NCBI GenBank assembly: GCA_037444445.1
Contig: JBBIMK010000004.1
Location: 1 to 32,000 of the forward strand
DNA length: 32,000 bases
Source: a bacterium
GTDB lineage: Bacteria > UBP7 > UBA6624 > JBBIMK01
Direction of reading: 5' to 3'
Shown: piece by piece, positions 10,978-31,928 of the stretch
Numbering within the stretch: the stretch's first letter is position 1
Layout of the letters: every line of letters starts with the position of its first letter
Notes under the pieces: model-generated
The model's database searches: none
What the model saw: the letters and a program-made list of their open reading frames with translations, nothing else
Told to the model about the DNA's origin: nothing
Program-made: the position numbers and the translations under genes

Positions 10978-11073
10978 CAGCCCGACACCTCCTCTCACTT
11001 TCAAGTTTACCACACTGGGGGTAGAAAATCAAGAGTGTAACCCTTGCGGAGATGAAATTGGCGGAATATGGTG

Positions 11074-11147
11074 TGGGCCTTCCTGGAGTCGAACCAGGGA
11101 CCTCGCCCTTATCAGGGGCGCGCTCTTGCCTGCTGAGCTAAAGGCCC
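11074..11147 (-). tRNA. tRNA-Ile (anticodon GAU)
   Basis: The reverse complement folds as a 74-nt cloverleaf: acceptor GGGCCTT/AAGGCCC, D-arm GCTC-AGCAGGCAA-GAGC, anticodon arm CGCCC-CTGATAA-GGGCG, variable loop AGGTC, T-arm CCTGG-TTCGACT-CCAGG, discriminator A. CCA is not encoded. Confidence 0.95.
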
Positions 11148-11281: not shown

Positions 11282-14200
11282 TTACGGGGGTAAGCACTGG
11301 GTAGTGGCGTTATAAAAACTGCCCGGTCGGCAGCGATTCCGACGAAATGCAGGCCACCGGACATCATTATTAGAGGTCGTGAGGGGGAATGTCCAGAGGG
11401 TGTGGAAGCGGAAGTCATCGGCGCCCAGCGTGATTTCCACATAGTTATCACCCGTCGCTTGATCCAGATTATCCACAGCGGTGGAGGAGAAGATGGGAAA
11501 GCCGAAATCCACGGGCCAGCCATTGATGATGGCGCAGCGATTATCCGGAGTTTGTGACGATGGAATCTGAGGTTTACAAAGATTAAAGAGAGGGTCACGG
11601 GGGTCGGTATGTGGGTGATTTTTGCCATCCCAGTAGAGGGCATAGAGTTTGCCATCAAAGGAGCCGATGATGATGTCCGGCTCCCCATCGCCGTCCACAT
11701 CGGCGATAGAGGGGGAGGCACGGACCACATCGTCGGTTTGGAAGGGCCAGCCATCATTCACACCATCATTGATGAGAACGCCCTGGAGTGCGACCATGCT
11801 CGCCAGACCATCAAAGGCGTAAATACTTCCGTTGTCCGAGCCAATCACCACATCCAGGAAGTTATCCCCGTTTAAGTCAGCGAAAGCGGGAGAGGATTCC
11901 ACAGTTCCACCCGTCTGGAAGAACTGACTGAAAGAGCCATCGCACTCCACGAGGTAGATATTGCCGTTGTCGGCGCCGAGAATAATTTCCGGACAGTTGT
12001 TCTGGTCAAAGTCGGCGATAGTGGGGGAGGAACGGAAGGAAGTTGTAGGGCAGACGGGGAAGCCGAAAATGGGCTCGCCGCCACCCTGAGACACGGGCCG
12101 CCCGCTGGCGTCCCAGGCGTAGATACAGCCGTTGGTGGCCGCCACAATCAAGTCCTGATACCCGTCAGGACCCCCCGGGTTATTCGGCTGTCCAATATCC
12201 GCCACCGCCGGAGACGCCCGAACCGGCACACCTATCTGCTTGGGATAACCTGAAAGGAAAGGTGGAGTATACAACATCACCGGCGATTGTGGCTCACATT
12301 GAGGGTCATTTACGAAGGGAATAAACATGGCATCCGGTTTGCCATCCTGAGCGCCGTAACCAGCAGGACCTGCCACATCCAGGAACCGCCAGATGGCAAT
12401 AATGCCGGATTCCGAGGCAGCCGCTACTTCTGGATACCCATCCGGATCCGGATCCCCTTGCAGGTTCACCACATCCAGCAGGGTTGGAGTTGCGGAAACG
12501 AAGCCGAGGAAATAGCCCAACTGGTGCGTGGTGAGTTGCGCCGCCAGCGTATGGGGAGAGTCACCCCAGCTCCTACCTTCCGAACGGATGACATAGACAG
12601 CATCCTGTCCACCGATAATGACCTGTTGGTCCACCATGCCATCCACCGCTACATTGTCGCTGACGAAGCACTCGTCTTCATCGGGATCGTAATAGAGATA
12701 ACAGTAGTGAGTATTTCCGCCGAGAGTATTTCCGCTTTCATCCATCAGGATACCCATGGTGGGAGATGACCGAAACGCTACCGTTCCACCCTGACCCGGG
12801 AAGGGAAAAGGTATGTCACAATAGCTGAAGAAGGGCAGAGAAGGGGGAAAATCACCTAAAAAGTTCAAGATGACCAATTCATCCGTTTGAGTCACGGGCC
12901 AGGTGGCAGGGTGAAAGCCAGTGCCGGCAAAATTTGCGCCACCGGGCGTGAACACATACACCCTCCCCCCATAATCTGCGCCTGCTATCTCTCGGACATT
13001 ATTGTTATTTGGAGGTGTGTTCAAATCTCCCGTGGCATTGGAAGACTTCACCCAACCCGTGGCACTCCGTGGCCAGGAGAAAGGCTTATAGGGTGGTGTT
13101 GCCCATGCCCGCACTTCGTCCGAGGGGTTGCTCTTCAAGTTTCCGCTGTCCACAGCCACCACCACATAGAAGTAGATTCCGCCATAGCAAACCTCGTCTA
13201 TCTCATTGAAATTGGCATCCCCATCACAGGGCCTGCTGTCGGTGTAGGATACGGTGGATTTATTCAGTGTAGCGATGCGGTTACTATCTACGACAGGAAC
13301 CGGGGAAGAGGTGGATTTATAGATTTCGTAGTGGTCTAAATCTGGCTCTGTGTTGGCTCTCCAGGTGAGGACCATAGAAGTTCCACCGCCTGGAAGGGGG
13401 CGGGGCGTGAGAACCACATCCTGGGGCGCTGACGGAGGCGTGTTCACGACGGAAGCATAGCCAGAATCCAGGGCAGAGGATAGCCCGCTCCGCCCCGCCG
13501 GGTTAAACGCTTCCACTTTATACCAGTAGACCGTGCCGGGAACCGCATTCCCGCCGTTTGCTGTTGTCAGGTCCCAATAGCACATATTGTCCGGAGGTAG
13601 ACCCGTGCAGGACTCTCCCGGCGGGAACAGGTCGGAGCCAATTTGCAGGTAGGGTCCAAAAGCAGATTGGGAACGGTAGAGGTGATAATACTGACCCGGG
13701 GCGTTGGGGTTCGTTACCAGGGGCCAGAAAACCTCAATACGGTCCGAAAAGGCACCATCACTGGCGGTGATAGAAGTGGGAGCCGAAGGGGCGGAGATGG
13801 AAGTCCGCCCCAGGTCCCCGTTCGTGGGCTTGAAATCGCTCCAGAGGGTCCCGCTGGGTGTATCTACCCCGGCACGGACTCTGAAATAATAATCCGACCC
13901 GGGAGTAATGGAGTTGTCGTCAAAAAAGAACTCCAGGTCAGGGTCGCTATCACAATTGACGGTGCCGGTAGGGGCTCCGGGAATATTCACATATCCAGAG
14001 GTGGGGTTGATAGAGCGCCAGACTTCGTAGCGGGTGGCGCCAAAAGAAGAGTCCCAGCAGACGCGGACCCGGTCTGGAAAGGGCGTGCACCCCTGTGGGT
14101 CGTTGGGGTCCGAGGCGCACACGAAATTCGGTGGATTCGGCGCCGCAGGCGCCGCATACCCGGTGTCTGGAGATGCATTGGGGCTGGAGCCAAAATTGTT

Positions 14201-16345
14201 CTTCGCCACCACGGTGTAGCAGAATGTGGTGCCGATGATGGCTGGAGGTTGAACATCATCAAAATAGTTCTGAGTGGCAGGAAGGTCGGGGCTAATGGGT
14301 GTGTAAACCGTAGAGGGGTTGCAAGGAACATCCCCGCGCAAAACCTGATAGGTGATCGCACCGGGTGTAACATTCCAGGTGATACGAACGATGCCCGGGC
14401 GTGTGGTATCCCCATCCGTGGCTTGCACTCCCGTAGGCGCGGGGGGAACGGGAGGAACGCCTCCCGCAAACCCCCAGCACTTCAACTCGTTCGTGTTCAG
14501 GTCCACCTCGCACTCGCTGAAATCAGAATCCAGATTTGCATCCACGCCCGCCGTCTTCACCCAGTAGTAGTACACCACACTCTGACTGACCTGGGAATCC
14601 TCGTATTCGTTCACATTGGGGGTGGCGATGAACAGGTCATTCGGCGATGGAGGAACAGGAGCCTGGGTCCGGTACACCTTGTAAAGGCTGAAACCGGACA
14701 CCGGGTCCCAGGTAATCTTGATGGCGGTATCAATCAAATTCCCGTTCGGGTCTACATAAGCACCCCGGGATGCCTGGACATTGGATGGTTTGACAGGCTT
14801 CCGCCAGCCCGGGTCAGTCGTAGAGGGGGCACTTAATCCGATGGGATTTCCTGCACGCACATAATAAGAATACTGAACGCCCTGCAGAGCCGTGGTATCC
14901 GAAAAGGTTACCGCAGGAGAGGCAACTTCTCCGATGGCTTGAAACCCGCTGGGGGGATTCTGTCGGCTCCGATAAATGCGATAGAAAGTGGCATTGGGAA
15001 CAGGATTCCAAGAGATGTCCACCCGGTCATCATAAAGCCCATCGGTGGCGCTCACCCCTGTGGGAACAGCTGGAGGCGTCTCCACCGCTGAGGTCGTGCC
15101 CACATCAGGGGCAGACAGGTCGCTGGCGCGATTGTTTATCACCACGCGAACCTTGTAATAAAATTGCGAACCCGGTGGAACAGGGTCATCATAGAGTTTG
15201 GCACCGGTAGTAACGATTATGCTATAAGAAGAATCTGGAGTCTGGGTGAGAGAGCGAAAGACTTCATAAGTGGCGTTCTGGTCCGACACCCAGGAAATCC
15301 GAATCACATTCGGAAAATCACCATCCGTAGCCTGAACATTGGTGGGAGGCAGAGGTTTTTTCCAGCCCTCATCCACAGCGGCGGACAGGTCGCCAAGAAA
15401 CGGATTATCGCAGGTATTATTGATTTCCCGACCGGATTTTACACGATAATAATACGATTGGGCAGGCTGGAGAACAGGGTCCTGGTCTTCATAAGCAGTG
15501 GTGGTGGTGAAAGCATTGATGGGTGCATAGGGACCACTGGGAGCAGGCGCTCGGTAGACCTGATAACAGGTGGCATTCACGACCGCCGACCACGACACCA
15601 CAACTTTGTTCGTGAACTCCCCGTCCGTCGCAGACACCGTTAGAGGAGGAGAAACCGGGCTGGTATTCAAGTAGCCCTGGGCTGGCTCGCTTTCCGGGCT
15701 TGCCCCGTATAAGTTGAAAGCCTGAACCCTGTAAAAATACGAAATGCCACCCTGTAATCCAGCGGTATCATCATACACATTCAGCGTCAGGTCGCCATCT
15801 AATTGAACCCACGAATTAGGGTCAGCAGGGGTCGTCGTTCGGAAAAGTCGGTAATGCGTGGCATCGGGAATGGGTAACCAGGTAATGTGAATTTTTTCGT
15901 AGAACTCTCCTCTGGATGCTTGCACGTTCTCAGGTTTGGGAGGAGGATTTCCACCGACATACCCGGAATCAAAGGAAATAGAGAGACCCGAGAACCCTGC
16001 CGCATTCCCCGCCTTTACCCTGTAATAATAGGTTTTCCCGGCTTCCGCGGTGGTGTCATCGTAAGATGTGGTGGCAACCGTCCCGCTCAACTGAGTATAG
16101 TTCAACTGGTTCAGGGAACGCCAGACTTGATAGACTGTAGCGCCCACGGAAGGGGTCCAGGAAATTTTTACCCGGTCAGTAAATACCCCTTTCGTCGCCG
16201 AGATAGAAGCCGGTGCCGCTGGCGGATTGGCAGATGGCTGGGGGCCACCCCCTCCACCCTGGTTACAACCCGTCCATATCAAAAGCCCTGCGCTCCCGAG
16301 TATTATTCCCGGGAAAATCCACCGAACTATTTTTGTATTTTTCAC
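11282..16345 (-). CDS. Giant lipoprotein-like surface protein (1687 aa): 10 Fn3-like domains plus an FG-GAP/VCBS-like beta-propeller
   Basis: GTG 16345 lies 8 nt after GGGAGG, while the ORF-track start GTG 16354 sits inside the SD. The signal peptide is MKNTKIVRWIFPGIILGSAGLLIWTGC-NQGGGGGP. Ten repeats follow the ..DG.F.D.V.ISW..V.GAT.Y.VYRS....Y..I....Y.D......YYY.V.A.N..G.S pattern. The C-terminal third has blades such as SSPAFADLNGDNFLDVVIGSDNGSIYAF and ASPSIADVDGDGEPDIIIGSFDGKLYAL. Confidence 0.85.
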   Translation of the reverse strand: MKNTKIVRWIFPGIILGSAGLLIWTGCNQGGGGGPQPSANPPAAPASISATKGVFTDRVKISWTPSVGATVYQVWRSLNQLNYTQLSGTVATTSYDDTTAEAGKTYYYRVKAGNAAGFSGLSISFDSGYVGGNPPPKPENVQASRGEFYEKIHITWLPIPDATHYRLFRTTTPADPNSWVQLDGDLTLNVYDDTAGLQGGISYFYRVQAFNLYGASPESEPAQGYLNTSPVSPPLTVSATDGEFTNKVVVSWSAVVNATCYQVYRAPAPSGPYAPINAFTTTTAYEDQDPVLQPAQSYYYRVKSGREINNTCDNPFLGDLSAAVDEGWKKPLPPTNVQATDGDFPNVIRISWVSDQNATYEVFRSLTQTPDSSYSIIVTTGAKLYDDPVPPGSQFYYKVRVVINNRASDLSAPDVGTTSAVETPPAVPTGVSATDGLYDDRVDISWNPVPNATFYRIYRSRQNPPSGFQAIGEVASPAVTFSDTTALQGVQYSYYVRAGNPIGLSAPSTTDPGWRKPVKPSNVQASRGAYVDPNGNLIDTAIKITWDPVSGFSLYKVYRTQAPVPPSPNDLFIATPNVNEYEDSQVSQSVVYYYWVKTAGVDANLDSDFSECEVDLNTNELKCWGFAGGVPPVPPAPTGVQATDGDTTRPGIVRITWNVTPGAITYQVLRGDVPCNPSTVYTPISPDLPATQNYFDDVQPPAIIGTTFCYTVVAKNNFGSSPNASPDTGYAAPAAPNPPNFVCASDPNDPQGCTPFPDRVRVCWDSSFGATRYEVWRSINPTSGYVNIPGAPTGTVNCDSDPDLEFFFDDNSITPGSDYYFRVRAGVDTPSGTLWSDFKPTNGDLGRTSISAPSAPTSITASDGAFSDRIEVFWPLVTNPNAPGQYYHLYRSQSAFGPYLQIGSDLFPPGESCTGLPPDNMCYWDLTTANGGNAVPGTVYWYKVEAFNPAGRSGLSSALDSGYASVVNTPPSAPQDVVLTPRPLPGGGTSMVLTWRANTEPDLDHYEIYKSTSSPVPVVDSNRIATLNKSTVSYTDSRPCDGDANFNEIDEVCYGGIYFYVVVAVDSGNLKSNPSDEVRAWATPPYKPFSWPRSATGWVKSSNATGDLNTPPNNNNVREIAGADYGGRVYVFTPGGANFAGTGFHPATWPVTQTDELVILNFLGDFPPSLPFFSYCDIPFPFPGQGGTVAFRSSPTMGILMDESGNTLGGNTHYCYLYYDPDEDECFVSDNVAVDGMVDQQVIIGGQDAVYVIRSEGRSWGDSPHTLAAQLTTHQLGYFLGFVSATPTLLDVVNLQGDPDPDGYPEVAAASESGIIAIWRFLDVAGPAGYGAQDGKPDAMFIPFVNDPQCEPQSPVMLYTPPFLSGYPKQIGVPVRASPAVADIGQPNNPGGPDGYQDLIVAATNGCIYAWDASGRPVSQGGGEPIFGFPVCPTTSFRSSPTIADFDQNNCPEIILGADNGNIYLVECDGSFSQFFQTGGTVESSPAFADLNGDNFLDVVIGSDNGSIYAFDGLASMVALQGVLINDGVNDGWPFQTDDVVRASPSIADVDGDGEPDIIIGSFDGKLYALYWDGKNHPHTDPRDPLFNLCKPQIPSSQTPDNRCAIINGWPVDFGFPIFSSTAVDNLDQATGDNYVEITLGADDFRFHTLWTFPLTTSNNDVRWPAFRRNRCRPGSFYNATTQCLPP
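13100..16216 (-). repeat. Array of ten tandem Fn3-like domain repeats (about 90-115 codons each) inside the 1687-aa gene
   Basis: The repeats are diverged at DNA level. At protein level they share I[ST]W, AT.Y.[VL][YWF]R, Y.D and YYY.V.A motifs at regular spacing, spanning residues about 47-1085 of the ORF-track protein. Confidence 0.75.
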
Positions 16346-16398
16346 TTCATCCACCTCCCTTCTTTTTTTCCTTCAGTGTAGCAAAGTTCCAGTGCTTA

Positions 16399-16470
16399 TT
16401 GCTTTTCCTCATTTCCTTTCTATTCCTCCTCATCCCTCTTCCCCTGTTCCCTCTTCCCTCCCCTTCTTCC
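16399..16470 (-). repeat. Polypurine (GA-rich) tract in the leader of the 1687-aa gene
   Basis: The plus strand here is almost pure pyrimidine (tgcttttcctcatttcctttctattcctcctcatccctcttcccctgttccctcttccctccccttcttcc). The mRNA sense is GGAAGAAGGGGAGGGAAGAGGGAACAGGGGAAGAGGGATGAGGAGGAA..., with many SD-like GGAGG/GAGG units. Confidence 0.8.
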
Positions 16471-19400
16471 CTATGGACAAACCGGGGGAGTTCCCTCAAT
16501 GAAGAAGCAATCGTGGGTATTGCCGGTGAAGGAATTGGAGCCACCGAAGTTCTGGATTCCATCAATATTGAAGGCAGAAGCCCCCTTCTCCAGGAAGCCG
16601 GCATAGATATTATTGGACTCAAAAATGGTGTTGTTAATCTGGGGCCAGGCATAGTTCTGCAGGGCATTTGCCGGGTTAGTGGGGTCACAGCACGGCCAGT
16701 AGCCGAGAAAGGACCAGTCCACGGGGTCGCTGTTTACCGCCAGGGCAAAGGGCGTCGGTCGGCCAGTGCCATTGGCATACACTCCATTGGTGGCGGAGAA
16801 AGCAATCCGGGAAGCACCCGGCTGGGTAGCATGGATATAAGGCGAGGCATTCACCATGTAAATCGCTCCTTCAATGTTGCTTCCTCCATAGAGAACCTGA
16901 GAGTTTAAGAGGTCGCTGACTGCGTCGTAGGCATCCACCCCGAGGCGGCAAACCAGAATCGTGCCCGGGACGAAGGCGCAGGGCTCCGGGTCCGCATCGT
17001 CATCTGCACTCCGCAGAGAATCATACCAGTCCCGACTATCCTCGTGGAAGCGGATGGCACCCCAATCCCCTGGCAGGGGCATACCGGTCGTCCCATCCGA
17101 GTCGCCAAAGAAGGAATCATCCCGGATGGAAGTGAAAACGGTATTGGTTGCCCGAAGAGCGGAATGAACCTGGATATCTATGGCTTCCTTGCTGTATCCA
17201 GGGTGTTCCGGGGTGGTGAGGAATTTCACCACCGTGTCCGTAATGCGGAGAATCACCCGGGACTGCAGTGCGTCCTCAGTGGGATGATTGACCCGTCCCA
17301 GAGCCGCATCCGCGTCCTCCTGAAGAATCAAGAGGTCATCCCCCACCACATACACAATGTCATTCTCAAAGGAACGCCACCAGGCGTCATAGCCCGTGGC
17401 ATCGGGTTGCATATCGTATGTATCTGGATTAGCCGGGTCCAGGCTTTCCGGATTTCGGTCGTAAATCACTCCCCGGGTGAGACGAATGATATTGAGGGTG
17501 TTAGGGTTAGTAACCGGGGTGGGCTGGAAGAAGTTGCCGGGATTCAAAGTGATGAAAGGGGGCATCAGAATCGGATACGGGTCGTTATCTGCATAGCAGT
17601 TATAATCGTTTGCCACCGGAAGAGTGGTGGTGCAGGCACCAGGGGTTGCGGTAGCGGGCGCCCCCAACCCCACCCCCGGGCTCGTCAGGTCCATCTTTAC
17701 CCGGCTGACCAGTGAAAGAGCCCCCGGATTTAATACCAGATTATCCGGGTCAATTATATCCTCCTCTATGTCTCCCATCACAAAGGCTTCATCGTAGTCA
17801 ATCCACAGCCCGTTGCGATGGTTCCGGACCATAGAAATCCGCTGAAGAGCGGGAGAGGCTTGATATACATACACGCCAGAGCCCGAATTGTCCACGGAAA
17901 CAAAGTTATCCACGACCGTAATGAGGACATTGACGATGGAGATAACGCCTCCCGTTTCCTGATTCCGAAACCTCAGCCCATCCCCACCATTATTCCGGCT
18001 GATCGTATCCGTAATCTGGCTAAAAATAGGGGTGGTCGGGTTGTTGTCAATACAGATGAAAATGCCATGATTGGCATTATTTTCTACGGTGAGTTCATCA
18101 ATCTGGAAGCGCTCGGGATTGTGCAAATAGACCCCCATGCGCATGCCGATAGGGTCCTGGACGCCACAGAGGGCAATAGATTGAGGCATAGCGGTTCCGT
18201 TGTGAGCCACCCGGTGAGGGAAAACCGGGTTCAGGAATGAGTTCACAATCGTGGGGCGAGAACCCTCCACCTCTACCCCGTTAGCCCCATTGTCGTGAAC
18301 ATAAATGGCATCCAGGTGTGTCAAAACCCGGGTGACCACATAAATTCCCCTCTGCCCGTTGAAGGCGGATTCCGTCTTCAAAACCCGCAGGGGGCTGTCC
18401 CGAATTTCTATTCCATTGGTGGTATTATTGAGAATATTGGATTCACTGATTTCGAGGTTGAATTGATTCTGCCCGTATATCCCGTTGGTCTTGCTGTATT
18501 GCACCACCGTGCCGAGGAGGGTGTAAAGGGAAGTGGGAAGGGAAGGGCCCTGGAAAATCAGGGCGCCCTGGGCGCCACCACCGCCACCGTAGAGGATTTT
18601 CACATTGGATAGAGTTCCAGACAGTTGCGTCTTGATGAGGATAGACCCCCAATCCCCCGGAGCCGGAGAGGTAGCCACGCCATCCCCGTTCGTATCCCCA
18701 CCGCTGGCGTCATCCCTGAAAGAAGTGAATATATTGCGATTCAAGCGGGTGCCGAGGCTGGTTAACACACCGTCCACTACAAGCCCCGGATTCTCCCCGA
18801 AGGGCTGCTGGTCAAAGAACTTAATCAGCACATTTTCCATCAGCCGGAGTTCCACCCCCTGACCCACAGTAATCAGACCGAGGGGAACATAGGGAATGAC
18901 GGCGCCCGTATCCAGAGAGTTCATCACTCCCCAGATGGCTACGGGGAAGGTGGAAGGGATGGGACCGGGATAAATAGCGACTGCGTTATAGCGATTCTTC
19001 CCGGCACCGGTGGCGACGAAGGTGTTTGAATTTTCCAGCCCCGAGCCCGTGCGGAGGTAAAAGGGCGGAATGATGAGAGGGAAAGATTGGATACCCGAGA
19101 AGGTATTATTCCGAATGATGGGGTTGGTCTTCGCTGGGTCCCCGTTCCGGTCCACCACAATCGCCGCCGAAGCGCTATCCGAAATCAGCACCGAGTCCAC
19201 AACCGGGCTGGAAGAGAGGACCCGAATGGCTCCGTTGAAGAATGGAGCAGAGGGGGTATCCGGAAGGCCGGCATAATAGATTTGAACCCCTTTTAAGCGT
19301 CCAGCACCGTCCGCATCAAAGAGAATCCCTGCCCAATCTCCTGCTGCCGGCGTGGTGGCGGTTATATCTCCGTTCGTATCCCCCCCACGGCTGTCATCCT

Positions 19401-22395: not shown

Positions 22396-22491
22396 TGTCA
22401 GCCACACCTCCCTTTTGGCTCTTTTTTCGGTTTCATCTTTCTATTTCGCTCCTTTTTTTCTCTTCCCTGTCACCTTATCCATCCTCACTCC

Positions 22492-25400
22492 TCACGGAAC
22501 GAGAGTGGCTTTGGCGCTTTCAATCGGCGGAGCGACGACAATGACCTCCGCAGGAGAGGAGGTAACAGCATCTTCCGCCCGAACATCAAAATTAGAAGTG
22601 ATTCGTGCCCAGAATTGTAAGGGTGGAAGAGAAGGACCCGCACCTCCGCCACCATTGCAGGATGTGAACAGCCCCACCGCCACCAGAAGGACAAGGGCAG
22701 TTGCCAGAAGGCTCCGACGACGGAAGCCCAATCCCAGCCCGGCCACCAGAGTCAGGGCAAAGAGCAGGGGAAGCCCACCTGCCTTGCCGGTGTGAGAAGT
22801 TGCCCCGGAGATGGGGGCTCCTATGACTCCCGCTGATGCGGATAGGTTACTGGCGAAATCATAGGTTACTACATAAGTGCGGGTGGTGCCTTTTGGAATC
22901 ACCTCACTCACCGCCAGCGTCAGGTCCGCAATGCCATTGTCATTCGCATAGTAACCGGTAGCCAGAGGGGTAGTGCCATTGGGCTTCCCATCCCCATCCG
23001 TATCCGTCCACAACTTCACCAGGATATTGGGGTAGGCATCATTGCCGGTACCCTGAGCGAACAGGCTAAGCCCTTTCAGACGGATATCGTTGCCGGTGGG
23101 GTCTGCGGTCATCTTCAACTGGAGCATGCTCACTTTCATGTTGCCCGGATAAACCTGAATAAATTCAGGAATGACTCCGCCCTTTTCCACCTTCAAAGAG
23201 GCGGTGGCAGGAGAGACGGGATTCACCAACGCCCTCAGGGAATCGGCCTTTGTGCCATCTCCGCTGGAAACCATATTCAGAATGAAGGTCTGAATCGCGC
23301 TGGCGGAAGTCGGTGAAGTGATGCGTAACTGTAAAGAGTTCGGGAACTGCGGGAAAGAGCTGCCCGGTGGGATGACAGGGGTCTGACCCAGGAGCACATT
23401 ATTGTAATAAACGCCCACGGCCCAGCCCGGAGGGGGTGACCCCAGGAAGTTGAAGGTATACAGGTCGTTCACATTTCCGGTGTTCACAATAGTGATGTCA
23501 AAGTTAGCGGTATTGCCGGGGGGAGCGAATTTAGAGGAAGAGCCGCCGGCGCCGGAATTGGGTGCCCCGATGATGCCCGCTCCATTGCCGTCAATGGCAC
23601 CATCCACACCATAGCGAATTGCCTGGATATTCGCTCTCGCTTCCAGGGAATCCGACTTCGTCGGGTCGCCCTGGGATACCGCATCTACAATAAAGGTCTG
23701 GCTGATGTCATTCCCCAGGAAAGGTGGAGTCGGTTTCGTCACTTTGAAGGTGAAGCTCATACTTCCGCCCGCAGTAACAACCGGCGTGATGTAGCCCGAT
23801 GCCCGGTCTGCGGTGCCATCATTCAGAACCGCCGTGAAGCCCGAAGGCGTTACCCAGGTGAACTGGTAGGTATCCGAGGTATTGCCTGTATTCCGGAGTA
23901 GAATGGAATAACTCGCTGTCTGTCCGTCTACAACGGTTTTCGTAGAAGAGCCACCCAGTCCTGTGCCGGGAGCGCCCTGGATGTTATTTCCATTGTTATC
24001 CACCTGCAGGTCTGTTCCGTAGAAGATATTAGGAGGAGTCTGGCGGGAGGTAACTGCTTTCACTGCGTCGGCAGCACCCGGGGCGGAGAGGCTACGCACC
24101 TGAACCGCCACCGTCTTCGTGGTGCCGGAGGCCTGTGATGTAGGAGTAACCTCCAGACGCACGACCCTGTAGTTCCCGGTACTGAATGTCCCGGTACGCC
24201 AGCCGGTAGAAGTCAGCAGCGCGGTAATTTCAGAGCCCGATGCCTCGTCAAAGTAATGAATGTCCCAGCCATCGGAAGTGGGAGGAGTGCCCGTCAATAG
24301 AAACTCGTCCTCCAGCCCGATATTTTCTGCGAAGATATAGTAGATTGCTGGGGAGCCTGTGTTGGCTACCCGGCTCAGGCTCTGCCCCGTGGCGTTTGTA
24401 TTGATAATCCTCCGGCCGATGGCGCCGTTGATGTCGTTATCCTGGTCAATGGATAAGTCGGGCATATAACTCAGCCTCGTTCGGGCTTTCACCGTGTCGC
24501 TCCGGGTGCCATCAAAAACGGAAGTGGCGGTGAAGGAAATCTCCAGAAGGTCGCCGAGGGAGCCGGAAGCGGCAGTAACCTCCCCTCGGAAGAAAACTTC
24601 CTCATTCCGGTTCAGCGTGGCAGTAATATAAGAGCCAGCGGTCACAGCCCCCGTAATGTCAGTTCCACCGGAGATAGCGTCGTAGTATTTCACATCCCAT
24701 TGCCCGGAACCTGCGGTGCCAGAAATCCTCATCTGGTCCGATGTATTCCCGTCATTTTGAACCCTGAAGTAATAAGTGGCGGTAACACCCGGACCCGTAT
24801 CGCGGGACACAATCTGGGTGGGGTCAAAGAGGTTATTGCCGATGTAATCAATGTTGTCGCTGGAGGCGAGGACATCCGGGCGGTAGATGGGTCCCACCAC
24901 GGATTCTGCTATCACTTTGTCTGACTTCTGTGGTTCCTGAACCGGCGTGAGTGTGATGCCCGGTGCAAATGTATCGCCCGCATTCAGCGTGTTCACATCT
25001 GGAGTCACTTCCAGGCGATAAATTCCGGAGAGGCTGAATTTCGGGATCTGGACTGTATAACCGCCGAGGATAGCGGAAGTAATGTCCGCCCCACCCGTCT
25101 GCTGAGTGTAGTATCGGGCGGTCCAGCCAGCGGGAGGCGCTGTATCCGCCCTCAGCGTGAAGTTGCCCAGCACATTCCCATCGTTCTCCAGCCAGAAGTA
25201 ATAAGTAAGAGTCTGCCCCGTCGTGGCCTGCTGAAGCGTCTGATTCTCCACCGGGTCCGGTGGGGTGTACACATCATTCCCGATGCGCATAGAAGGCAAG
25301 GGCTGTAAGCCAATGGACAAATCCGCCTGGCGGAACAGGATGACCGTCGTGTGAGCCTTCACGGCATCCACCTTCGTGGCATCGCTTACAGAAGTAGAGG

Positions 25401-27819
25401 TCAGAAGAACATCGTAGGAAGCGTTGCCTTCCACCGTTCGGTCAGGAGTGATTTCTATCCGGATGTCCTGGGTTCCAGCCTGGGGGATGGCAAAGACCCT
25501 GCCTGCGCCCATAACCGACCCGGTGATGTTATTCCCGCCGGTGAAAGCATCCCAGTAAGTCACGGTCCAGCCCGACGGGTTCGTTTGCGGACCTTTTACC
25601 CGAACATTATCCGTGGTGTTCCCTTCATTCTCCAGGCGAACATAATAGGTGGCGGTTGCATTGTTGACGACGGTGAGAGATTTCGTTTGATTCGTTCCGT
25701 CAGAGTTATAGATGCCATCGCCAACCGCATCCGAAAGCCCGGCATCTGTGGCGATGAGACCATCAATGCTGTAAAAGATTCTGGCAGAGGCGCTGGCAAC
25801 CACCACATCCAGAACGGCTTTATCCGCATCGGAGGTTGCGGTAACAGGGATGGTAAAGGTAACGCCACCCGGGGCATTGGAGTTGATGGTGAGTTCCGCA
25901 CGAATGGTGGTGGATGCGGATACAGCGAGGGTGCCGGTATTCCATCCCGCGCCGGCAATCTGGGCGGTAATATCATTCCCGCCCGTCTCCGCATCGTAGT
26001 AAATAAGAGTGCATCCGGCGGTGCATCCGTTGGGCTGTGCCGGAGCGGTGACGGTGAAACTATCAGCAATCACGCCGTCGTTTTGTATCTTCACTACAAA
26101 AACGGTGGTGATGGGACCCGCCTGCACATCCACCTCCCGGTAGGCGGTCTGGTTGGTTCCATCGGTGTTATAGACATTATCGCCCTGGAAAGTCGGGTCG
26201 CCAGAAATCTTGATTTGCCCATCCGCACGAGATTGTGAGTAGTCCATCGTAATATCATCTAAAATCACCTGGAGTTGGCCGTTGGAATGGAGGAAGGCGC
26301 GCCAGTAGATGTTTCCCTGGTAGGGGAATTGACGGATATTGGCAGACACATCGGCGGTGGGGGAAGCCTCATCGTAGGTGCCGTTAGAGGCTATCCAGCC
26401 CGCCCCACCCCAGCGATACCAGTTCGTCCCGTCTGCAGAAAGGATATAGCGGATTCCCGCATTGGGAAGCCCCTGATAAGTCCCCGTTTCCTGAAATCTC
26501 AGGAGAGATGCGAAGGCGGGGCGAACCGCCGTATTCTCTATCATCGGATTAGAGGTAGGATACCTCGTCTGCAGTCCGCTAATAGTCTGCGTCAGGGAAG
26601 GCGTAGGAATCGCATAAAACTTCACCGAGTTCGCCTGGTTTAAGGGGGCAGTGTTCGGTGCACGGTTGTAGCCAGGAACAGTATACCTTGTGCCCCCTAC
26701 ACCCCGACCAATAGCCACCACAGGAGGACAGGGATAAGAGGAGCAGGGAGTAAGATAATTGCCCGTAATATCTGCATAATCAAACTGGATATTCCCGTTC
26801 CGGAACAGCCGGACCTGATATTCATCGGTTCCGTCATTTCCATAGGGGTGAGCACACCATCGGATAACGACTACAGTTGAATTCGGAGAAGGATTCCGAA
26901 AAACACCCTGCTGGGAACAATTGTCACTTCCAACGCCGGACCCATTCCACTGGTCCTGGGCATAGGGGTCAATGACACGACTATTCAGAGTTCCTGACCA
27001 GGCTGAATCATTTAAAGATGCCCACGGGCAATTCGGAGTGCCTGAGTTAGAAGTGTTTGGCATAACGCAACCATTGGCATGAATCCGGATATAGCGGTAG
27101 CGGTTAGTGCCCCAGTATGGGAAGTAAGTACTTCCAAAGTAAGTGCTTAAATCTATGCCAGTTACGCCTTCATCCCCAAGTGTTCCGATAAATGTGCTGG
27201 CTGATGGTGGGTCGTTAAAGCGATTGGACCCCAGGTTCGCCAGAACATAATCTACGGGAGCAGTGCCGGGATAAGAATCCGGCACACCGGCGCCGAACAT
27301 CGCTTCCACATCAGTCGTGCGACCAGAGCAGGATGCACCAATATTCCCGAAATACATAAAAATATCCGTCGTTTGCCCGGTGGGAATGCTGGGCACACGA
27401 ACCCAGAAAGTAGCGGTTTGACTGCCAGCCGGAGAAGGCGTCCAGGTTGCAAGATAGGTGGTCAGAATCGCCCCGGTGGAGTCGGTGAAACAGATGTCGC
27501 TATTGGATGTGGTAGCACCATAATAACTCCAGAAATCGGTCTGATTGGAACCTATATCCACCCTCACTAACTGGTTCGTGTAACTCGTTCCAGTAGTATT
27601 TCCAATGCTAATGGTTTTCCGAACAGGCCAGGGAATCAGCCAGGGAGTATTTTCAAACAGACTTGCCACACCTCCACTGACCACAATTTGACCCGGTGGA
27701 TTGACGGTATAATCCCCCGCATTGGAAAAGTCCCAGGTGGTGGTAGCCCCCATCAGAAAAAAACTGGTGATGAGAGCAAAAAAATTAGATAAAAGCCTCC
27801 TGTTTACGCCATTTGCCAT
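22492..27819 (-). CDS. Giant exported protein (1775 aa): DUF2341-like N-domain, NIDO-like region, 7 CARDB/NEW3-like beta-sandwich repeats, C-terminal hydrophobic anchor
   Basis: ATG 27819 lies 7 nt after AAGGAGGTG. The signal peptide is MANGVNRRLLSNFFALITSFFLMGATTTW. WPVRKTISIGN...SDICFTDSTG...ATFWVRVPSIP...IFMYFGN fits the DUF2341 pattern. The seven repeats carry motifs such as TYYVRLENEGNTTDNVRV...GWTVTYWDAFTGGNNIT. The C-terminus reads LPLLFALTLVAGLGLGFRRRS.... Confidence 0.85.
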   Translation of the reverse strand: MANGVNRRLLSNFFALITSFFLMGATTTWDFSNAGDYTVNPPGQIVVSGGVASLFENTPWLIPWPVRKTISIGNTTGTSYTNQLVRVDIGSNQTDFWSYYGATTSNSDICFTDSTGAILTTYLATWTPSPAGSQTATFWVRVPSIPTGQTTDIFMYFGNIGASCSGRTTDVEAMFGAGVPDSYPGTAPVDYVLANLGSNRFNDPPSASTFIGTLGDEGVTGIDLSTYFGSTYFPYWGTNRYRYIRIHANGCVMPNTSNSGTPNCPWASLNDSAWSGTLNSRVIDPYAQDQWNGSGVGSDNCSQQGVFRNPSPNSTVVVIRWCAHPYGNDGTDEYQVRLFRNGNIQFDYADITGNYLTPCSSYPCPPVVAIGRGVGGTRYTVPGYNRAPNTAPLNQANSVKFYAIPTPSLTQTISGLQTRYPTSNPMIENTAVRPAFASLLRFQETGTYQGLPNAGIRYILSADGTNWYRWGGAGWIASNGTYDEASPTADVSANIRQFPYQGNIYWRAFLHSNGQLQVILDDITMDYSQSRADGQIKISGDPTFQGDNVYNTDGTNQTAYREVDVQAGPITTVFVVKIQNDGVIADSFTVTAPAQPNGCTAGCTLIYYDAETGGNDITAQIAGAGWNTGTLAVSASTTIRAELTINSNAPGGVTFTIPVTATSDADKAVLDVVVASASARIFYSIDGLIATDAGLSDAVGDGIYNSDGTNQTKSLTVVNNATATYYVRLENEGNTTDNVRVKGPQTNPSGWTVTYWDAFTGGNNITGSVMGAGRVFAIPQAGTQDIRIEITPDRTVEGNASYDVLLTSTSVSDATKVDAVKAHTTVILFRQADLSIGLQPLPSMRIGNDVYTPPDPVENQTLQQATTGQTLTYYFWLENDGNVLGNFTLRADTAPPAGWTARYYTQQTGGADITSAILGGYTVQIPKFSLSGIYRLEVTPDVNTLNAGDTFAPGITLTPVQEPQKSDKVIAESVVGPIYRPDVLASSDNIDYIGNNLFDPTQIVSRDTGPGVTATYYFRVQNDGNTSDQMRISGTAGSGQWDVKYYDAISGGTDITGAVTAGSYITATLNRNEEVFFRGEVTAASGSLGDLLEISFTATSVFDGTRSDTVKARTRLSYMPDLSIDQDNDINGAIGRRIINTNATGQSLSRVANTGSPAIYYIFAENIGLEDEFLLTGTPPTSDGWDIHYFDEASGSEITALLTSTGWRTGTFSTGNYRVVRLEVTPTSQASGTTKTVAVQVRSLSAPGAADAVKAVTSRQTPPNIFYGTDLQVDNNGNNIQGAPGTGLGGSSTKTVVDGQTASYSILLRNTGNTSDTYQFTWVTPSGFTAVLNDGTADRASGYITPVVTAGGSMSFTFKVTKPTPPFLGNDISQTFIVDAVSQGDPTKSDSLEARANIQAIRYGVDGAIDGNGAGIIGAPNSGAGGSSSKFAPPGNTANFDITIVNTGNVNDLYTFNFLGSPPPGWAVGVYYNNVLLGQTPVIPPGSSFPQFPNSLQLRITSPTSASAIQTFILNMVSSGDGTKADSLRALVNPVSPATASLKVEKGGVIPEFIQVYPGNMKVSMLQLKMTADPTGNDIRLKGLSLFAQGTGNDAYPNILVKLWTDTDGDGKPNGTTPLATGYYANDNGIADLTLAVSEVIPKGTTRTYVVTYDFASNLSASAGVIGAPISGATSHTGKAGGLPLLFALTLVAGLGLGFRRRSLLATALVLLVAVGLFTSCNGGGGAGPSLPPLQFWARITSNFDVRAEDAVTSSPAEVIVVAPPIESAKATLVP
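23221..26223 (-). repeat. Seven tandem CARDB/NEW3-like domain repeats (about 140-150 codons each) inside the 1775-aa gene
   Basis: Recurrent [YF]Y[FV].[VL][EQ]N.GN..D.[FVM].[VLI] is followed by GW...Y[YW]D...GG.[DN]IT. The core motifs lie at ORF-track residues about 600, 752, 899, 1042, 1186, 1330 and 1466. Confidence 0.7.
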
Positions 27820-27856
27820 TTCTGGCACCTCCTTTCTATTTTCAAGGTTAAATTTT

Positions 27857-28306
27857 TCATCTTCCCCTTCTCCATTCTTCCCGCTCTTCAAATAGTTCAA
27901 TCAGGGGAGTATCCGGCGATTCGGGGCGAGGTCCCAGCACTCCTTTCTTCGGGTCGGGAATCAAGTCCAGCCTTTCTAACACAATCTGTCCCAGCAAAAT
28001 TTTCCCGTCCGGCTCCACGATGGCATCAAATTCTCCCTGCCTGCCCAGAATTTCCAAGATAATCCCATAAGCCACCTTTCTGGATGCCCTCCGACCATCT
28101 GCATAGGCCACCGTCGTTTCCTTCTCAAAATAAGGGAGTTGTAATTTCTGAGCCACCTCTTGCGGTATCACCAGAGAAGTGGCCCCGGTATCTACTAACC
28201 CTTCCTCTTCCATCACTTGAATCTCTGAGGCTCTCCGAATGCCTTTCACATATTCCAACTGATGCGCCATACTCCACAATCTCACTTTCGTCGTCACTTT
28301 GCCCAT
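27857..28306 (-). CDS. Retropepsin-like (clan AA) aspartyl protease, canonical DTG
   Basis: 149 aa starting MGKVTTKVRLW. The catalytic loop is GLVDTGATSLVIP and the C-terminal dimerisation-strand pattern is KILLGQIVLERLDLIPDPKKG. AGGGG lies 7 nt upstream of ATG 28306. No signal peptide. Confidence 0.75.
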   Translation of the reverse strand: MGKVTTKVRLWSMAHQLEYVKGIRRASEIQVMEEEGLVDTGATSLVIPQEVAQKLQLPYFEKETTVAYADGRRASRKVAYGIILEILGRQGEFDAIVEPDGKILLGQIVLERLDLIPDPKKGVLGPRPESPDTPLIELFEEREEWRRGR

Positions 28307-28378
28307 TTCTACCCCTGACACCATAGCCAGTGGCAACATGCTCTTACGATTGCCTCGCCACCTCCCTTCCTAATCTCC

Positions 28379-28738
28379 TTATGCCTCAGCCTCTGGAACA
28401 ATGAGCCGCTCCTTTTTGGGTTCCACCCAGAGGCCAGTGGCCTGTAGCACATCCGCCCCGAGAGTAGCCCTGTCCCTTATCTCACCAAAAACCACCGGGC
28501 GCAAGGCGGATTTCCCTTCTACCTGGAAAATGACATAACCCACCCACCGACTGATTCTGCAAGAATCCATCACTTCCAAATCAATGGGAAAGGGAGAGGG
28601 CTCTATGCCAATTTTCTTCAACCTTTTTGCGGGTATCACACTCATCACTGCGTCTGTGTCCACCGAATGGTTCACCTTTTCCTCCCGCCGGCGTTCCCCC
28701 GGGTTAGAAATCTTCACCGCCCACTGGAAGAGACCCAT
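28379..28738 (-). CDS. Retropepsin-like protein paralogue with a variant active-site loop (DTD)
   Basis: 119 aa starting MGLFQWAVKISN. The loop is HSVDTDAVMSVIP, with Asp in place of the Gly of DTG. The C-terminal pattern ATLGADVLQATGLWVEPKKERL parallels the neighbouring paralogue. Confidence 0.65.
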   Translation of the reverse strand: MGLFQWAVKISNPGERRREEKVNHSVDTDAVMSVIPAKRLKKIGIEPSPFPIDLEVMDSCRISRWVGYVIFQVEGKSALRPVVFGEIRDRATLGADVLQATGLWVEPKKERLIVPEAEA

Positions 28739-28868
28739 TTTCCTTTTCTCTACCTCTCTAAAGCCCTTGATAGCGGGCTATGGAGATAAAAATTATCCCC
28801 TTTTTCTACCCTCCCCTTTTCCAAAATTTTCCTCCTTCTTTCCTCCTCAAACACCTATTTCACATTCT

Positions 28869-28897
28869 ATTATAAATGCGACCCCCTGTCATGTCAA
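28869..28897 (-). promoter_or_regulatory. Perfect-consensus sigma70-type promoter (TTGACA-N17-TATAAT) facing the retropepsin/giant-protein cluster
   Basis: The minus strand reads GGTTGACAtgacagggggtcgcattTATAATag. The -35 is at 28897..28892, the spacer is exactly 17 nt, and the -10 is at 28874..28869. It lies about 130 nt upstream of ATG 28738, and the leader is GA-rich. Confidence 0.6.
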
Positions 28898-30099: not shown

Positions 30100-30134
30100 C
30101 CCTTTTGGTGCCAGGCACCAAAGGTGTTATTATT
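30100..30134 (+). repeat. REP-like palindromic element, full copy
   Basis: CCCTTTTGGTGCCAGGCACCAAAGGtGTTATTATT. The stem is TTTGGTG/CACCAAA around CCAGG. It starts 8 nt after the pheS stop and matches 31894-31928 at 34 of 35 positions. Confidence 0.8.
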
Positions 30135-30143
30135 TTAGTTAGC

Positions 30144-31127
30144 ATGCCACGACTACCCCGAATTGAATTTGAGGGCGCCTGTTACCATGTTTTCTCCCGG
30201 GGAAATAATCGCCAGCCCATCTTTTACACCGACAAAGACCGCCTGTATTTCCTGAAAAATTTAGAATCGCTCAAGGTAAAACTCCAGGTCAAAATTTACG
30301 CCTTTTGCCTTTTGACCACCCATTTTCACCTGCTGTTAGAAACGGAAAAAGCGAACCTCTCCACTCTGATGCAGAATTTGCTGACGAATTATGCGAGTTA
30401 TTTTAGGCGACAATATCGGACGGATGGGCACATCTTTCATGGGCGGTATCGTGCTATCCTGTGCGACAGGGATTCCTACTTTCTCCAGTTAACCCGTTAC
30501 ATCCACTTAAATCCTTATCATGCAGGGTTGTGTAGTGTTCCTGAAGATTATCCCTGGAGTAGCCTCAGAGCCTACCTGAACCTACCCTGCTCTTATCCAG
30601 TAAAAGTGGATATGGACCTGGCATTAAAACTGATAGGAGATGCGAATTCATATCGGCGATTTATTTGGGATGAAGTCACTGGCGTAACCCCTGTCTGGAA
30701 GCCTGAACCCCGGAGCAACTTTCTGGGTTCAACAGAATTCCTTGAAATGCTTTTAGATAAATTAAAAAGTTGTGGATGGACCCAGGAAAGTCTATCCGAA
30801 CTCAGCGAAAGGTTACGGGGCGTAAAGGAAATTCCTCTACCCGGTCTTATCCAACGAGTTTGTGAGTTTTATAAAATTACCCCCGAGGACCTTCGTAGCA
30901 CCACCCGACGGCGGAAAGTGGCAAAGGCGCGAGGAGTTCTAATCTATCTGGCGAAAGAAAATCTGGGATTAAAAATATCCAGCCTGAAAAACGAATTAGC
31001 GGCAGGTGAATCTACTTTTAAGCGATGGGTGAGGTTGATTCGGCGAGATGAAAAACTTCAGCGGGAGGCGAAAGAAATAATGACACCCTTTGGTGCCAGG
31101 CACCAGGGGGGTCATTTTCGCGCTTGA
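30144..31127 (+). CDS. REP-associated tyrosine transposase (IS200/Y1 family) with a C-terminal DnaA-C-like HTH domain
   Basis: MPRLPRIEFEGACYHVFSRGNNRQPIF. The HUH motif is HFHLLLE (30321-30329). The catalytic Tyr context is LTRYIHLNPYHAGL...YPWSS. The C-terminal ITPEDLRSTTRRRKVAKARGVLIYLAKENLGLKISSL resembles the DnaA domain IV HTH. The ORF-track N-extension MVPGTKGVIILVS is a translation of the REP. Confidence 0.85.
   Translation: MPRLPRIEFEGACYHVFSRGNNRQPIFYTDKDRLYFLKNLESLKVKLQVKIYAFCLLTTHFHLLLETEKANLSTLMQNLLTNYASYFRRQYRTDGHIFHGRYRAILCDRDSYFLQLTRYIHLNPYHAGLCSVPEDYPWSSLRAYLNLPCSYPVKVDMDLALKLIGDANSYRRFIWDEVTGVTPVWKPEPRSNFLGSTEFLEMLLDKLKSCGWTQESLSELSERLRGVKEIPLPGLIQRVCEFYKITPEDLRSTTRRRKVAKARGVLIYLAKENLGLKISSLKNELAAGESTFKRWVRLIRRDEKLQREAKEIMTPFGARHQGGHFRA
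31086..31118 (+). repeat. REP-like palindromic element, diverged copy
   Basis: CCCTTTGGTGCCAGGCACCAggggggGTcATTtT. It keeps the core palindrome TGGTGCC-A-GGCACCA. It lies inside the last 14 codons of the RAYT ORF and spans the convergent overlap with the 31112 gene. Confidence 0.7.
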
Positions 31128-31864
31128 AGGATTTCAACAACCGCACGAACATAGGCTGAAAGGAGGGATTTCTCTTTCTTGTCCACCGACTGGAGAGCCT
31201 GTGTGAGAAGAACCACCAGATAGTAATCCGGATTCTCGTCGGAGTCCACAACTTTACCGGAGCGGGCGTCAATATCCACCACGGTTTTCCCCAGGTCTGC
31301 TTCCCGGGTTGCCAGGTAGGCTTTGACTTCCACTTCATCCGCAAGGAGGGGAAGAGGGATCTGAAGGAACTCACCCCGATTCAGCCATTTTCCCACATCT
31401 TTTTTAAGTTCACCTGTGATGCCCGCCATACGGTAGGAAACCGTCACTTCCTTCAAATACACATCACCGTTATTGCGGAAGAGGTCTCGCTTTTGAGGCA
31501 CAAAGACACTGATGACGGCAGCGGGGCCGCCCTTCGCTATCACGGGCTGAGGTTCGGATTCCAGAGAGGTCAATTTAGCGGAAGCGAGGGTTTTCCACCC
31601 TTCTTTAATGTCCGTTTTACTCCCCGTTTCTGGCTGTATGCGAGCAAATTGATACCCCTCCTGTGAAGGTGAGCGGAGATAATGAAGGGCCTCCCGCAGA
31701 GGGTCCCGGGCTTTCGTCAGGTCCGGCAGGGGGTCCTGCAAAAGCGAGTGAACGACCTTCACCCGCTCATAAGCCATAGAAAGAGGAGTCGGAGGACTTC
31801 CCTCTTTCGCAACCGCAAAAAGGAAGGCGGGTAGCAGGAGGTAAAGGGAAGAAATTTTTTTCAT
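31112..31864 (-). CDS. Secreted hypothetical protein (250 aa)
   Basis: ATG 31864 lies 7 nt after GAGGTG. The signal peptide is MKKISSLYLLLPAFLFAVAKEG. No family recognised. The ORF-track extension MVPGTKRVIIRNRGDRR is a translation of the REP. Confidence 0.6.
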   Translation of the reverse strand: MKKISSLYLLLPAFLFAVAKEGSPPTPLSMAYERVKVVHSLLQDPLPDLTKARDPLREALHYLRSPSQEGYQFARIQPETGSKTDIKEGWKTLASAKLTSLESEPQPVIAKGGPAAVISVFVPQKRDLFRNNGDVYLKEVTVSYRMAGITGELKKDVGKWLNRGEFLQIPLPLLADEVEVKAYLATREADLGKTVVDIDARSGKVVDSDENPDYYLVVLLTQALQSVDKKEKSLLSAYVRAVVEILQARK

Positions 31865-31893
31865 TCTTCTATCACCTCTATTTCTAATAATGA

Positions 31894-31928
31894 CCCTTTT
31901 GGTGCCAGGCACCAAAGGGGTTATTATT
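31894..31928 (+). repeat. REP-like palindromic element, full copy
   Basis: CCCTTTTGGTGCCAGGCACCAAAGGgGTTATTATT. It has the same orientation as the copy at 30100. Its TTATTATT tail contains the stop codon of the minus-strand gatC fragment. Confidence 0.8.

Follow-up and report, generated by a model that had tools for sequence, protein, structure and literature searches.

A conserved three-gene set for predicted giant envelope proteins, one with a putative C-terminal lipoprotein anchor, in an uncultured bacterial lineage

What keeps three genes for proteins of almost two thousand residues together in one place, and do the two small genes in front of them belong to the same system? This question is raised by a window of 32,000 nucleotides (nt), by which we mean the whole stretch of DNA analysed here (positions 1 to 32,000 of the forward strand of contig JBBIMK010000004.1, GenBank assembly GCA_037444445.1, from a bacterium with the GTDB lineage Bacteria; UBP7; UBA6624; JBBIMK01). 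Five open reading frames (ORFs) follow each other on its minus strand, namely g1 (28379-28738, 119 amino acids (aa)), g2 (27857-28339, 160 aa, or 149 aa from the ATG at 28306), g3 (22492-27819, 1775 aa), g4 (16471-22395, 1974 aa) and g5 (11282-16354, 1690 aa, or 1687 aa from the next GTG). The original prediction, made from the letters alone, had seen in them a single cluster behind one consensus promoter and had proposed a dedicated cell-surface apparatus of two retropepsin-like proteins and three giant envelope proteins, and we could recover all five co-directional genes at these positions. Our answer is a narrower one, as we consider it rather probable that the region 11282-27819 (minus strand), that is g3, g4 and g5, is a three-gene operon of co-expressed, lipid-tethered giant envelope proteins.

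Conservation of the g3-g4-g5 trio

To all nine loci that we found (the window included), which belong to five clades, it is common that g3, g4 and g5 are adjacent and co-directional and stand in the same order. The full trio is seen in the window, in L001, L002, L003 and L004 and in L005/L006, and in L089 and L090 g3 is followed by g4 with the contig ending inside g4. The g3-like proteins of these last two loci came from the exhaustive search with the C-terminus of g3 described below, and the gene of a g4-like lipoprotein lies 22 nt and 12 nt downstream of them, respectively. Every contig with a full-length g4 homologue carries a DUF2341 giant before it and a giant with fibronectin type III (Fn3) and FG-GAP domains after it on the same strand, and the intergenic gaps in the relatives are 12-106 nt long, the smallest being 12-30 nt. 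This arrangement is kept over a considerable distance, since the identity to the window proteins is 31-70% for g3, 40-89% for g4 and 39-80% for g5, with about 31-44% in the distant clades. Even in the closest relative g3 is only 70% identical (g4 89% and g5 80%), showing that g3 evolves fastest. Cysteine counts of about 11, 16 and 27 are also conserved across most orthologues, which fits proteins outside the cytoplasm; an electron-transfer role was considered as well and ruled out, as the trio has no CXXCH haem motifs.

The genes flanking the trio vary by clade and include M42/M20 peptidases and patatin, a divergent isoleucyl-tRNA synthetase (IleRS) and unrelated ORFs. Order and strand are thus kept in divergent relatives with differing flanks for g3, g4 and g5, but not for g1 and g2, as no retropepsin homologue was found in the flanks (up to 10 kb) of the eight other trio loci; a metagenome scan gave no relatives of g2 either. 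Because the order is kept in nine loci and retropepsins are absent from the flanks, the conserved unit is the trio and not the set of five genes, and by this synteny g1, g2 and their promoter appear as local additions. The proposed single cluster therefore holds for the three giants, which are syntenic in all nine loci, and fails for the two retropepsin-like genes, which are present in none of the others. Scattered orthologues, named with the original prediction as a finding that would speak against it, were not observed for the giants, whose order is the same in all relatives found.

The family is also very rare. In 5.8 billion protein clusters there are no more than six full-length homologues of g4, and an alignment scan of the GTDB species representatives with g4 gave no relative. 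When full-length g3 was used in a word-based protein search, nothing but g3 and a single unrelated repeat protein came back, and the g3 orthologues were taken from the trio loci and from the exhaustive search. Weaker g4-like matches (25-35% identity) are present in at least 347 metagenome loci and contain beta-helix modules with the acidic loop GGDTNGDG..PGDW, but none of the 79 such loci that were examined has a g3 head, a g3 C-terminus or both partners, so that no new trio was obtained, and two of these weaker g4-like proteins, examined singly, each stand alone. As adjacency and order are kept in every relative and the family is so rare, the statement of the original prediction that these are not three unrelated genes is well supported.

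The rare lineage that carries the trio is known from metagenomes of hot springs and serpentinite groundwater. Of the relatives, the closest one was sampled in the Chocolate Pots hot spring in Yellowstone (PMC6137239) and another one in serpentinite groundwater in Oman (PMC9586279). PheS from the window is 51-60% identical to proteins of metagenome-assembled genomes from several phyla, including Nitrospirota, Thermodesulfobacteriota and Nitrospinota.

The C-terminal hairpin of g3

The end of g3 had been described as a C-terminal anchor, and here the picture had to be replaced, as the region reads as a first transmembrane helix (TM1), the loop RRRS, a second helix (TM2) ending in a lipobox cysteine and a tail of 54 aa. 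Using hydropathy and a lipobox scan we located this membrane hairpin at 22657..22779 (minus strand), with TM1 being GLPLLFALTLVAGLGLGF, TM2 being LLATALVLLVAVGLF and the lipobox being FTSC, the cysteine of which (Cys1721) has its codon at 22657-22659. Read from RRRS up to this cysteine, the sequence is built like the signal peptide of a lipoprotein. On its N-terminal side lie the first two-thirds of the last beta-sandwich of g3 (22858..23199, minus strand, aa 1541-1654), modelled by AlphaFold2 with a predicted local distance difference test (pLDDT) value above 90, and on its C-terminal side follow the Gly-rich linker NGGGGAGP and a tail of about 45 aa (22495..22656, minus strand), delimited by hidden Markov model (HMM) alignment and AlphaFold2.

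Hairpin, cysteine and tail are kept in the six full-length g3 orthologues and in two further g3-like proteins, and they are by no means restricted to the trio. The exhaustive search with the g3 C-terminus gave 255 matches at E<=1e-3, from which the last domain of g3 turned out to be of a widespread tandem-repeat type of about 160 aa that is repeated up to 26 times in proteins exceeding 5,000 aa and for which no Pfam or NCBIfam model exists. The complete module of hairpin, cysteine and tail stands at the end of 36 of the top 150 homologues. In 35 of these 36 the lipobox cysteine is kept and the exception has cysteines a few residues earlier, so that effectively all 36 have one, and in our alignment of hairpin modules (A2) the RR pair and the cysteine are invariant. 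An end tag of a different kind was seen in one protein with the same domain type (P0139), consisting of a Cys-containing stretch, one helix and an Arg cluster.

A C-terminus of this architecture, with a C-terminal transmembrane helix, a basic loop, a second helix with lipobox cysteine and a short tail, is described in NCBIfam under NF058595 ('invert_tail') as a putative 'lipo-invert' C-terminal anchoring domain, and g3 shows all of these elements, in just the stretch to which the model aligns. The NF058595 model matches the hairpin-module homologues, and the module is found on at least 30 otherwise unrelated proteins, among them S8 subtilisin-like proteases and DUF7619 proteins. The C-terminus of g3 itself is at best a divergent NF058595 relative, judged by its score against that model (given below). 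Our literature search on NF058595 found no paper. We know of no experiment on this family.

The tail after the cysteine resembles the sequence that follows the 'YDF' strand in the tandem-repeat proteins. For a closer look we used a domain HMM of 159 positions, which was built from 164 tandem non-anchored copies only. In this HMM the parts before the hairpin fall on positions 1 to about 120 and all 34 tails of the family on positions of about 115-159, and 33 of the 34 tails outscore at least 48 of 50 shuffled versions. The g3 tail from the window scores 9.0 bits at positions 123-158, which was reached by none of its 50 shuffles. The AlphaFold2 model of g3 residues 1536-1775 (predicted template modelling score, pTM, 0.70) shows the two hairpin helices and confident strands on both sides, with a pLDDT above 90 in the N-terminal part and of 90-96 in the tail, and Foldseek gave only weak matches of jelly-roll or cohesin-like type to it (best E 2.6e-3). 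By alignment and model we could thus show that the hairpin is inserted inside the last beta-sandwich of g3, with the tail predicted to supply the final strands. What this would add to the NF058595 description is the position of the hairpin within a recognisable beta-sandwich and a tail that completes the domain.

Domain layout of the giants and their surroundings

From its sequence g3 is predicted to be an exported protein that consists of a Sec signal, a DUF2341-containing head, seven Ig-like modules and the split beta-sandwich with the lipo-invert anchor. The Sec-type signal peptide (27745..27819, minus strand, aa 1-25), read from the sequence and from orthologue alignments, ends in FFLMGA and is followed by TTTWDF, and the orthologues keep T-x-T-W-x-F at the start of the mature protein. 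In the head a DUF2341 match (PF10102) is located at 27322..27504 (minus strand) with 45 bits at a cut-off of 23.4. Around it lies a divergent cassette (26551..27670, minus strand, about aa 50-423) where blastn detects no nucleotide similarity with the closest relative and leaves a gap between flanks that are about 80-82% identical, and where the protein identity is 25-33% versus 71-89% elsewhere in g3. The g3 head of a more distant clade (L089) is closer to that of the window. This suggests a cassette replacement, or else rapid divergence or diversifying selection at an exposed tip. An AlphaFold2 model of the head from five sequences was unusable (mean pLDDT 48). The stalk follows as seven tandem Ig-like modules of about 145 aa each (23230..26109, minus strand, aa 571-1530), for which a self-built HMM gave seven copies with E values of 2e-18 to 3e-42. 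The Sec signal, the DUF2341 domain and the number of repeats in the original prediction therefore stood, but not its assignment of the repeats to CARDB, as PF07705 did not match at E<=5 in four individual repeats, nor that of aa ~200-420 to NIDO, for which no Pfam family was found at the same threshold. One repeat showed a weak DUF11 match below the cut-off (E 5e-4, 20.8 versus 24.6 bits). Neither g3 nor g4 has a sequence relative in the PDB.

In g4 the predicted lipoprotein signal ends in VFTAC, with Cys20 encoded at 22336-22338 (minus strand), followed by NGGGGPGP, and the consensus of the g4 orthologues at this site is ACNGGGGPGP. Behind this linker come Ig-like domains, six acidic-loop beta-helix modules and a PbH1-type beta-helix. 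The modules were placed with self-built HMMs at aa 402-1338 and 1748-1889, with six copies of the motif 'FTS..DD..GGDTNGDG..PGDW'. In Pfam, g4 matches Beta_helix (PF13229) with 79.3 bits (cut-off 25.9) and NosD with 27.3 bits (cut-off 23.6), with weaker matches to Ig-like families. A stand-alone g4-type homologue (P0008) carries the C-terminal tail of the type IX secretion system (T9SS).

The corresponding signal of g5 ends in IWTGC, with Cys30 encoded at 16265-16267 (minus strand), and is followed by NQGGGGGP. Ten Fn3 domains (13145-16213, minus strand, aa 48-1070) were found with a self-built HMM, and behind them a propeller region of FG-GAP/PQQ-like type (11285-13129, minus strand) by Pfam and PDB matches. 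The Pfam scores are 47.2 bits for fn3 (PF00041, cut-off 25), 47.2 bits for FG-GAP (PF01839, cut-off 22.1) and 34.2 bits for FG-GAP_3 (PF13517, cut-off 26.9). In the PDB, g5 matches Fn3 of titin and the designed propellers named 'Cake', and a search with the propeller alone gave only generic FG-GAP/PQQ-like propellers. Both g4 and g5 have a signal peptide with a [LVI][ASTVI][GAS]C-like motif within about 35 residues, and these lipoboxes are conserved in every orthologue with a called start in all clades. With this the lipoprotein character predicted for both proteins is borne out at the level of the motif, together with the six beta-helix modules and Ig-like domains of g4 and, by HMM counts and Pfam matches, the ten Fn3-like domains and the FG-GAP-like propeller of g5.

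The two small genes are of a different kind. g2, with the motif DTGA, matches PF13975 (33.3 bits, cut-off 28.2) and PF13650 (30.5 bits, cut-off 24.3), so that the families gag-asp_proteas and Asp_protease_2 are reached above cut-off, with TIGR03698 staying below the cut-off of that model; g2 is thus a predicted retropepsin-like aspartic protease of clan AA. No Pfam or NCBIfam model matched g1, which has DTDA in place of the DTGA of g2 and shows a weak pairwise match to it (29% identity, E 2e-4), making it a cytoplasmic protein that is weakly predicted to be retropepsin-like. As read from their sequences, both proteins are without a signal peptide. Of the two retropepsin-like genes originally named, g2 could thus be substantiated and g1 could not.

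A perfect match to the sigma-70-type consensus, TTGACA-N17-TATAAT, is located, as had been predicted, at 28869..28897 on the minus strand, about 130 nt 5' of g1 inside the divergent intergenic region between pheS and g1. It is the sole perfect match in the whole window, and no match occurred in 100 shuffled controls. The consensus promoter is specific to the window genome, and no promoter-like site was found 5' of g3 in the three other loci scanned (L002, L004 and L005). The spacers from g1 to g5 are 72 (or 39), 37, 96 and 125 (or 116) nt long, which reproduces the original values, and a scan for terminator-like sites found none in any of the four, again in agreement with the original reading. 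Their purine content on the transcribed strand is 70-84%, that of the spacer 3' of g5 being 48%. The lack of terminator-like sites, the purine-rich spacers and the gaps of 12-30 nt in the relatives are indirect signs of a single transcript. Three GA-rich spacers on the minus strand (16355-16470, 22396-22491 and 28739-28868; 72-84% purine) carry strong ribosome-binding sites of GGAGG type.

Around the cluster lie housekeeping genes, namely an aa3-type oxidase operon, genes for electron transfer flavoprotein (ETF) and pheS. The G+C content at third codon positions (GC3) is 0.59-0.61 in g3, g4 and g5 and 0.52-0.66 in the neighbouring housekeeping genes; a recent horizontal transfer of the trio was ruled out on this composition. 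Directly behind pheS, a 340-aa ORF (30105-31127, plus strand) has an IS200-like Y1 transposase domain together with the C-terminal helix-turn-helix of DnaA, and two further ORFs (1043-2281, plus strand, 412 aa, and 31112-31915, minus strand, 267 aa) have no Pfam match. A tRNA-Ile(GAU) gene (11073..11147, minus strand) lies just 3' of g5, and this neighbourhood is seen in two clades (L001, 17036-17112; L002, 21680-21754; L003, 21786-21862; L004, 21596-21670). It has the same strand as the trio in the window, L002 and L004 and the opposite one in L001 and L003, so that it flips between close relatives, and because its orientation varies the tRNA gene is probably outside the conserved unit. In L001 a small ORF, GIY-YIG-like as read from its sequence, is present between g5 and the tRNA gene.

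Proposed model, alternatives and known systems

According to the model that we propose, each of the three giants would be exported by Sec and would probably be held at the outer side of the cytoplasmic membrane by a lipidated cysteine and a Gly-rich linker. For g4 and g5 this would be achieved by ordinary N-terminal lipoprotein signal peptides. g3 would instead combine its N-terminal Sec signal with the C-terminal lipo-invert, in which TM2 would act as an internal lipoprotein signal peptide, and the 54 residues after the cysteine would fold back and complete the beta-sandwich. From the motifs we infer lipidation and cleavage of the giants, with Lgt and signal peptidase II leaving the g3 ectodomain attached to the membrane via a lipidated C-terminal piece. 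From the anchor outward, the layout would be a stalk of repeated beta modules (seven Ig-like in g3, about six beta-helix in g4 and ten Fn3 in g5) and then a distal head, which would be the DUF2341-containing region in g3, the C-terminal beta-helix region in g4 and the FG-GAP propeller in g5. With textbook dimensions for Fn3 and Ig domains and for the rungs of a beta-helix, each protein might reach a few tens of nanometres, and on the envelope the trio together might form a layer with a binding or coat function. In the window genome the operon promoter would also serve two unrelated cytoplasmic retropepsin-like genes. In a bolder form, which we regard as possible but doubtful, the trio would be an undescribed envelope apparatus in which all three proteins use the same Cys-Gly4 tether, g3 would be cut into two chains by signal peptidase II with a lipidated peptide of about 54 residues being held by beta-strand complementation, and the split-domain anchor would be a general sorting device of dozens of unrelated surface proteins including S8 proteases.

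Several observations weigh against this model. Joining the part before the hairpin to the tail raised the score to the domain HMM in only six of the 34 proteins, g3 from the window not being among them. Against NF058595 g3 scores 19.1 bits (E 1.2e-3) at a cut-off of 37 bits, with the L002 orthologue reaching 20.0 bits and the L005 orthologue showing no match. If the cell has two membranes, the giants would sit in the periplasm or would have to cross it. Conserved gene order, moreover, is a sign of functional linkage and not of physical assembly, and family scans identified no catalytic or ligand-specific domain in the trio. Since no such domain was found and the model of the g3 head failed, the suggested binding or coat function is drawn by analogy from what these folds generally serve for.

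How far the giants belong together at all is best seen by comparison with the idea that they are independent adhesins or surface proteins, which are clustered by shared regulation or ancestry and form no joint structure. We hold this to be possible though unlikely. It would fit the fact that each giant has its own signal and anchor and that Fn3, FG-GAP, beta-helix and Ig-like domains are common in stand-alone surface proteins, but it leaves unexplained why order and adjacency are kept over five clades, at identities down to about 31-44%, while the flanks turn over completely, why no member of the trio was found alone and why all three share a similar length and the layout of anchor, stalk and head. 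Shared order, adjacency and layout favour a joint function without proving contact between the proteins. The opposite extension, in which all five genes form one apparatus and the retropepsin-like proteins are maturation proteases or partners of the giants, appears very improbable to us. The shared consensus promoter and the short, terminator-free gaps in the window genome speak for it, yet it is largely refuted by synteny, as the flanks of the eight other loci (up to 10 kb) contain no retropepsin homologue and show genes for M42/M20 peptidases, one for a divergent IleRS or unrelated ORFs on the upstream side of the trio. Also g1 matches no protease model and has DTDA instead of DTGA, and because g1 and g2 are without signal peptides they would not meet exported substrates. 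The contig of the closest relative ends just 5' of g3, so that a very recent and lineage-specific association of g1 and g2 with the trio is conceivable.

A function in polysaccharide binding or degradation is a further alternative, with the trio as an envelope-tethered set resembling the lipid-anchored glycan-binding proteins from the utilisation loci of Bacteroidota and the g4 beta-helix as its catalytic or binding part. The PbH1-type beta-helix is a fold typical of polysaccharide lyases and hydrolases, g4 matches Beta_helix and NosD, which are of this type, and g5 has weak sub-threshold matches to the pectate lyase PelI model and to GH85_C. Nevertheless we consider this improbable, as no catalytic family of glycoside hydrolases or lyases was matched above threshold, no transporter, SusC/D-like, regulator or sugar-metabolism gene adjoins any of the loci, and g3 and g4 lack sequence relatives in the PDB. 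We prefer the three-gene operon of lipid-tethered giants. If this is true, about 16.5 kb would code for a single conserved envelope structure made of three proteins, in an uncultured lineage of iron-rich hot springs and serpentinite groundwater, and the trio would be a concrete target for the question how such cells contact minerals, polymers or other cells. The interest of the locus rests mainly on the strict conservation of the trio and on an anchor that is directly testable.

Lipid-anchored giant surface proteins are as such a known kind. The original prediction could name no characterised system of this composition, and this still holds for secretion systems and adhesins, to which no match was obtained, but not for the anchor of g3, which is curated in NCBIfam as the putative 'lipo-invert'. 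In agreement with the absences it had noted, the Pfam and NCBIfam scans of the giants and the neighbouring genes gave no RTX repeats, type I secretion system (T1SS), autotransporter, Rhs, LPXTG/sortase or T9SS tail, the sole T9SS-related match being sub-threshold (28.9 bits at a cut-off of 600 bits), and no glycosyltransferase is present near the cluster. With RTX adhesins such as LapA, MpIBP and SiiE the trio shares the long tandem stalk of Ig- or Fn3-like domains, the distal ligand modules and the acidic loops of Ca type. It differs from them in the absence of RTX nonapeptides, T1SS genes and a retention module, in the predicted lipid anchor in place of an outer-membrane plug and in being three proteins in a fixed operon instead of one. 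Extended stalks of beta domains held to a membrane by a covalent lipid are also known from the PGF-CTERM/ArtA surface-layer glycoproteins of Haloferax and from glycan-binding proteins of Bacteroidota; the trio is distinct from these by having neither a PGF-CTERM, exosortase or archaeosortase signal nor SusC/D partners.

In their first 30 residues g4 and g5 look like classical lipoproteins of the Lgt/Lsp/Lnt pathway, with a charged n-region, a hydrophobic core and the lipobox cysteine. Their size of about 1,700-2,000 aa is extreme for this class, and unlike in classical lipoproteins the cysteine is followed by a lineage-specific Cys-N/G-GGGG-P linker, which is shared with the internal site of g3. 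The latter has in common with the lipo-invert family NF058595 the transmembrane helix, the Arg cluster, the second helix, the lipobox cysteine, the Gly-rich linker and the short tail, but that family is a curated prediction and g3 stays well below its cut-off (19.1 versus 37 bits). If validated, the g3 anchor would mean that the ordinary lipoprotein machinery can attach proteins also by their C-terminal end, and it would explain a module that is present on many unrelated surface proteins and is so far only a curated prediction. No sortase-like gene adjoins the trio as a possible sorting enzyme, and none was seen beside a lipo-invert protein in the one context examined. For MYXO-CTERM proteins such as TraA from Myxococcus xanthus it was proposed that lipidation of a cysteine and subsequent cutting lead to a C-terminal lipid anchor (PMC11980579). 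Like g3, proteins of the MYXO-CTERM/myxosortase system end in a sorting region in which an invariant cysteine occurs together with a membrane helix and an Arg-rich stretch in the cytoplasm, but there the cysteine precedes a single helix, no lipobox is defined and a CPBP-type protease cuts, whereas in g3 the cysteine stands after the second helix in a classical lipobox context and about 54 residues follow. It is thus the closest characterised mechanism for a C-terminal lipid anchor at a cysteine, with topology, motif and enzyme being different.

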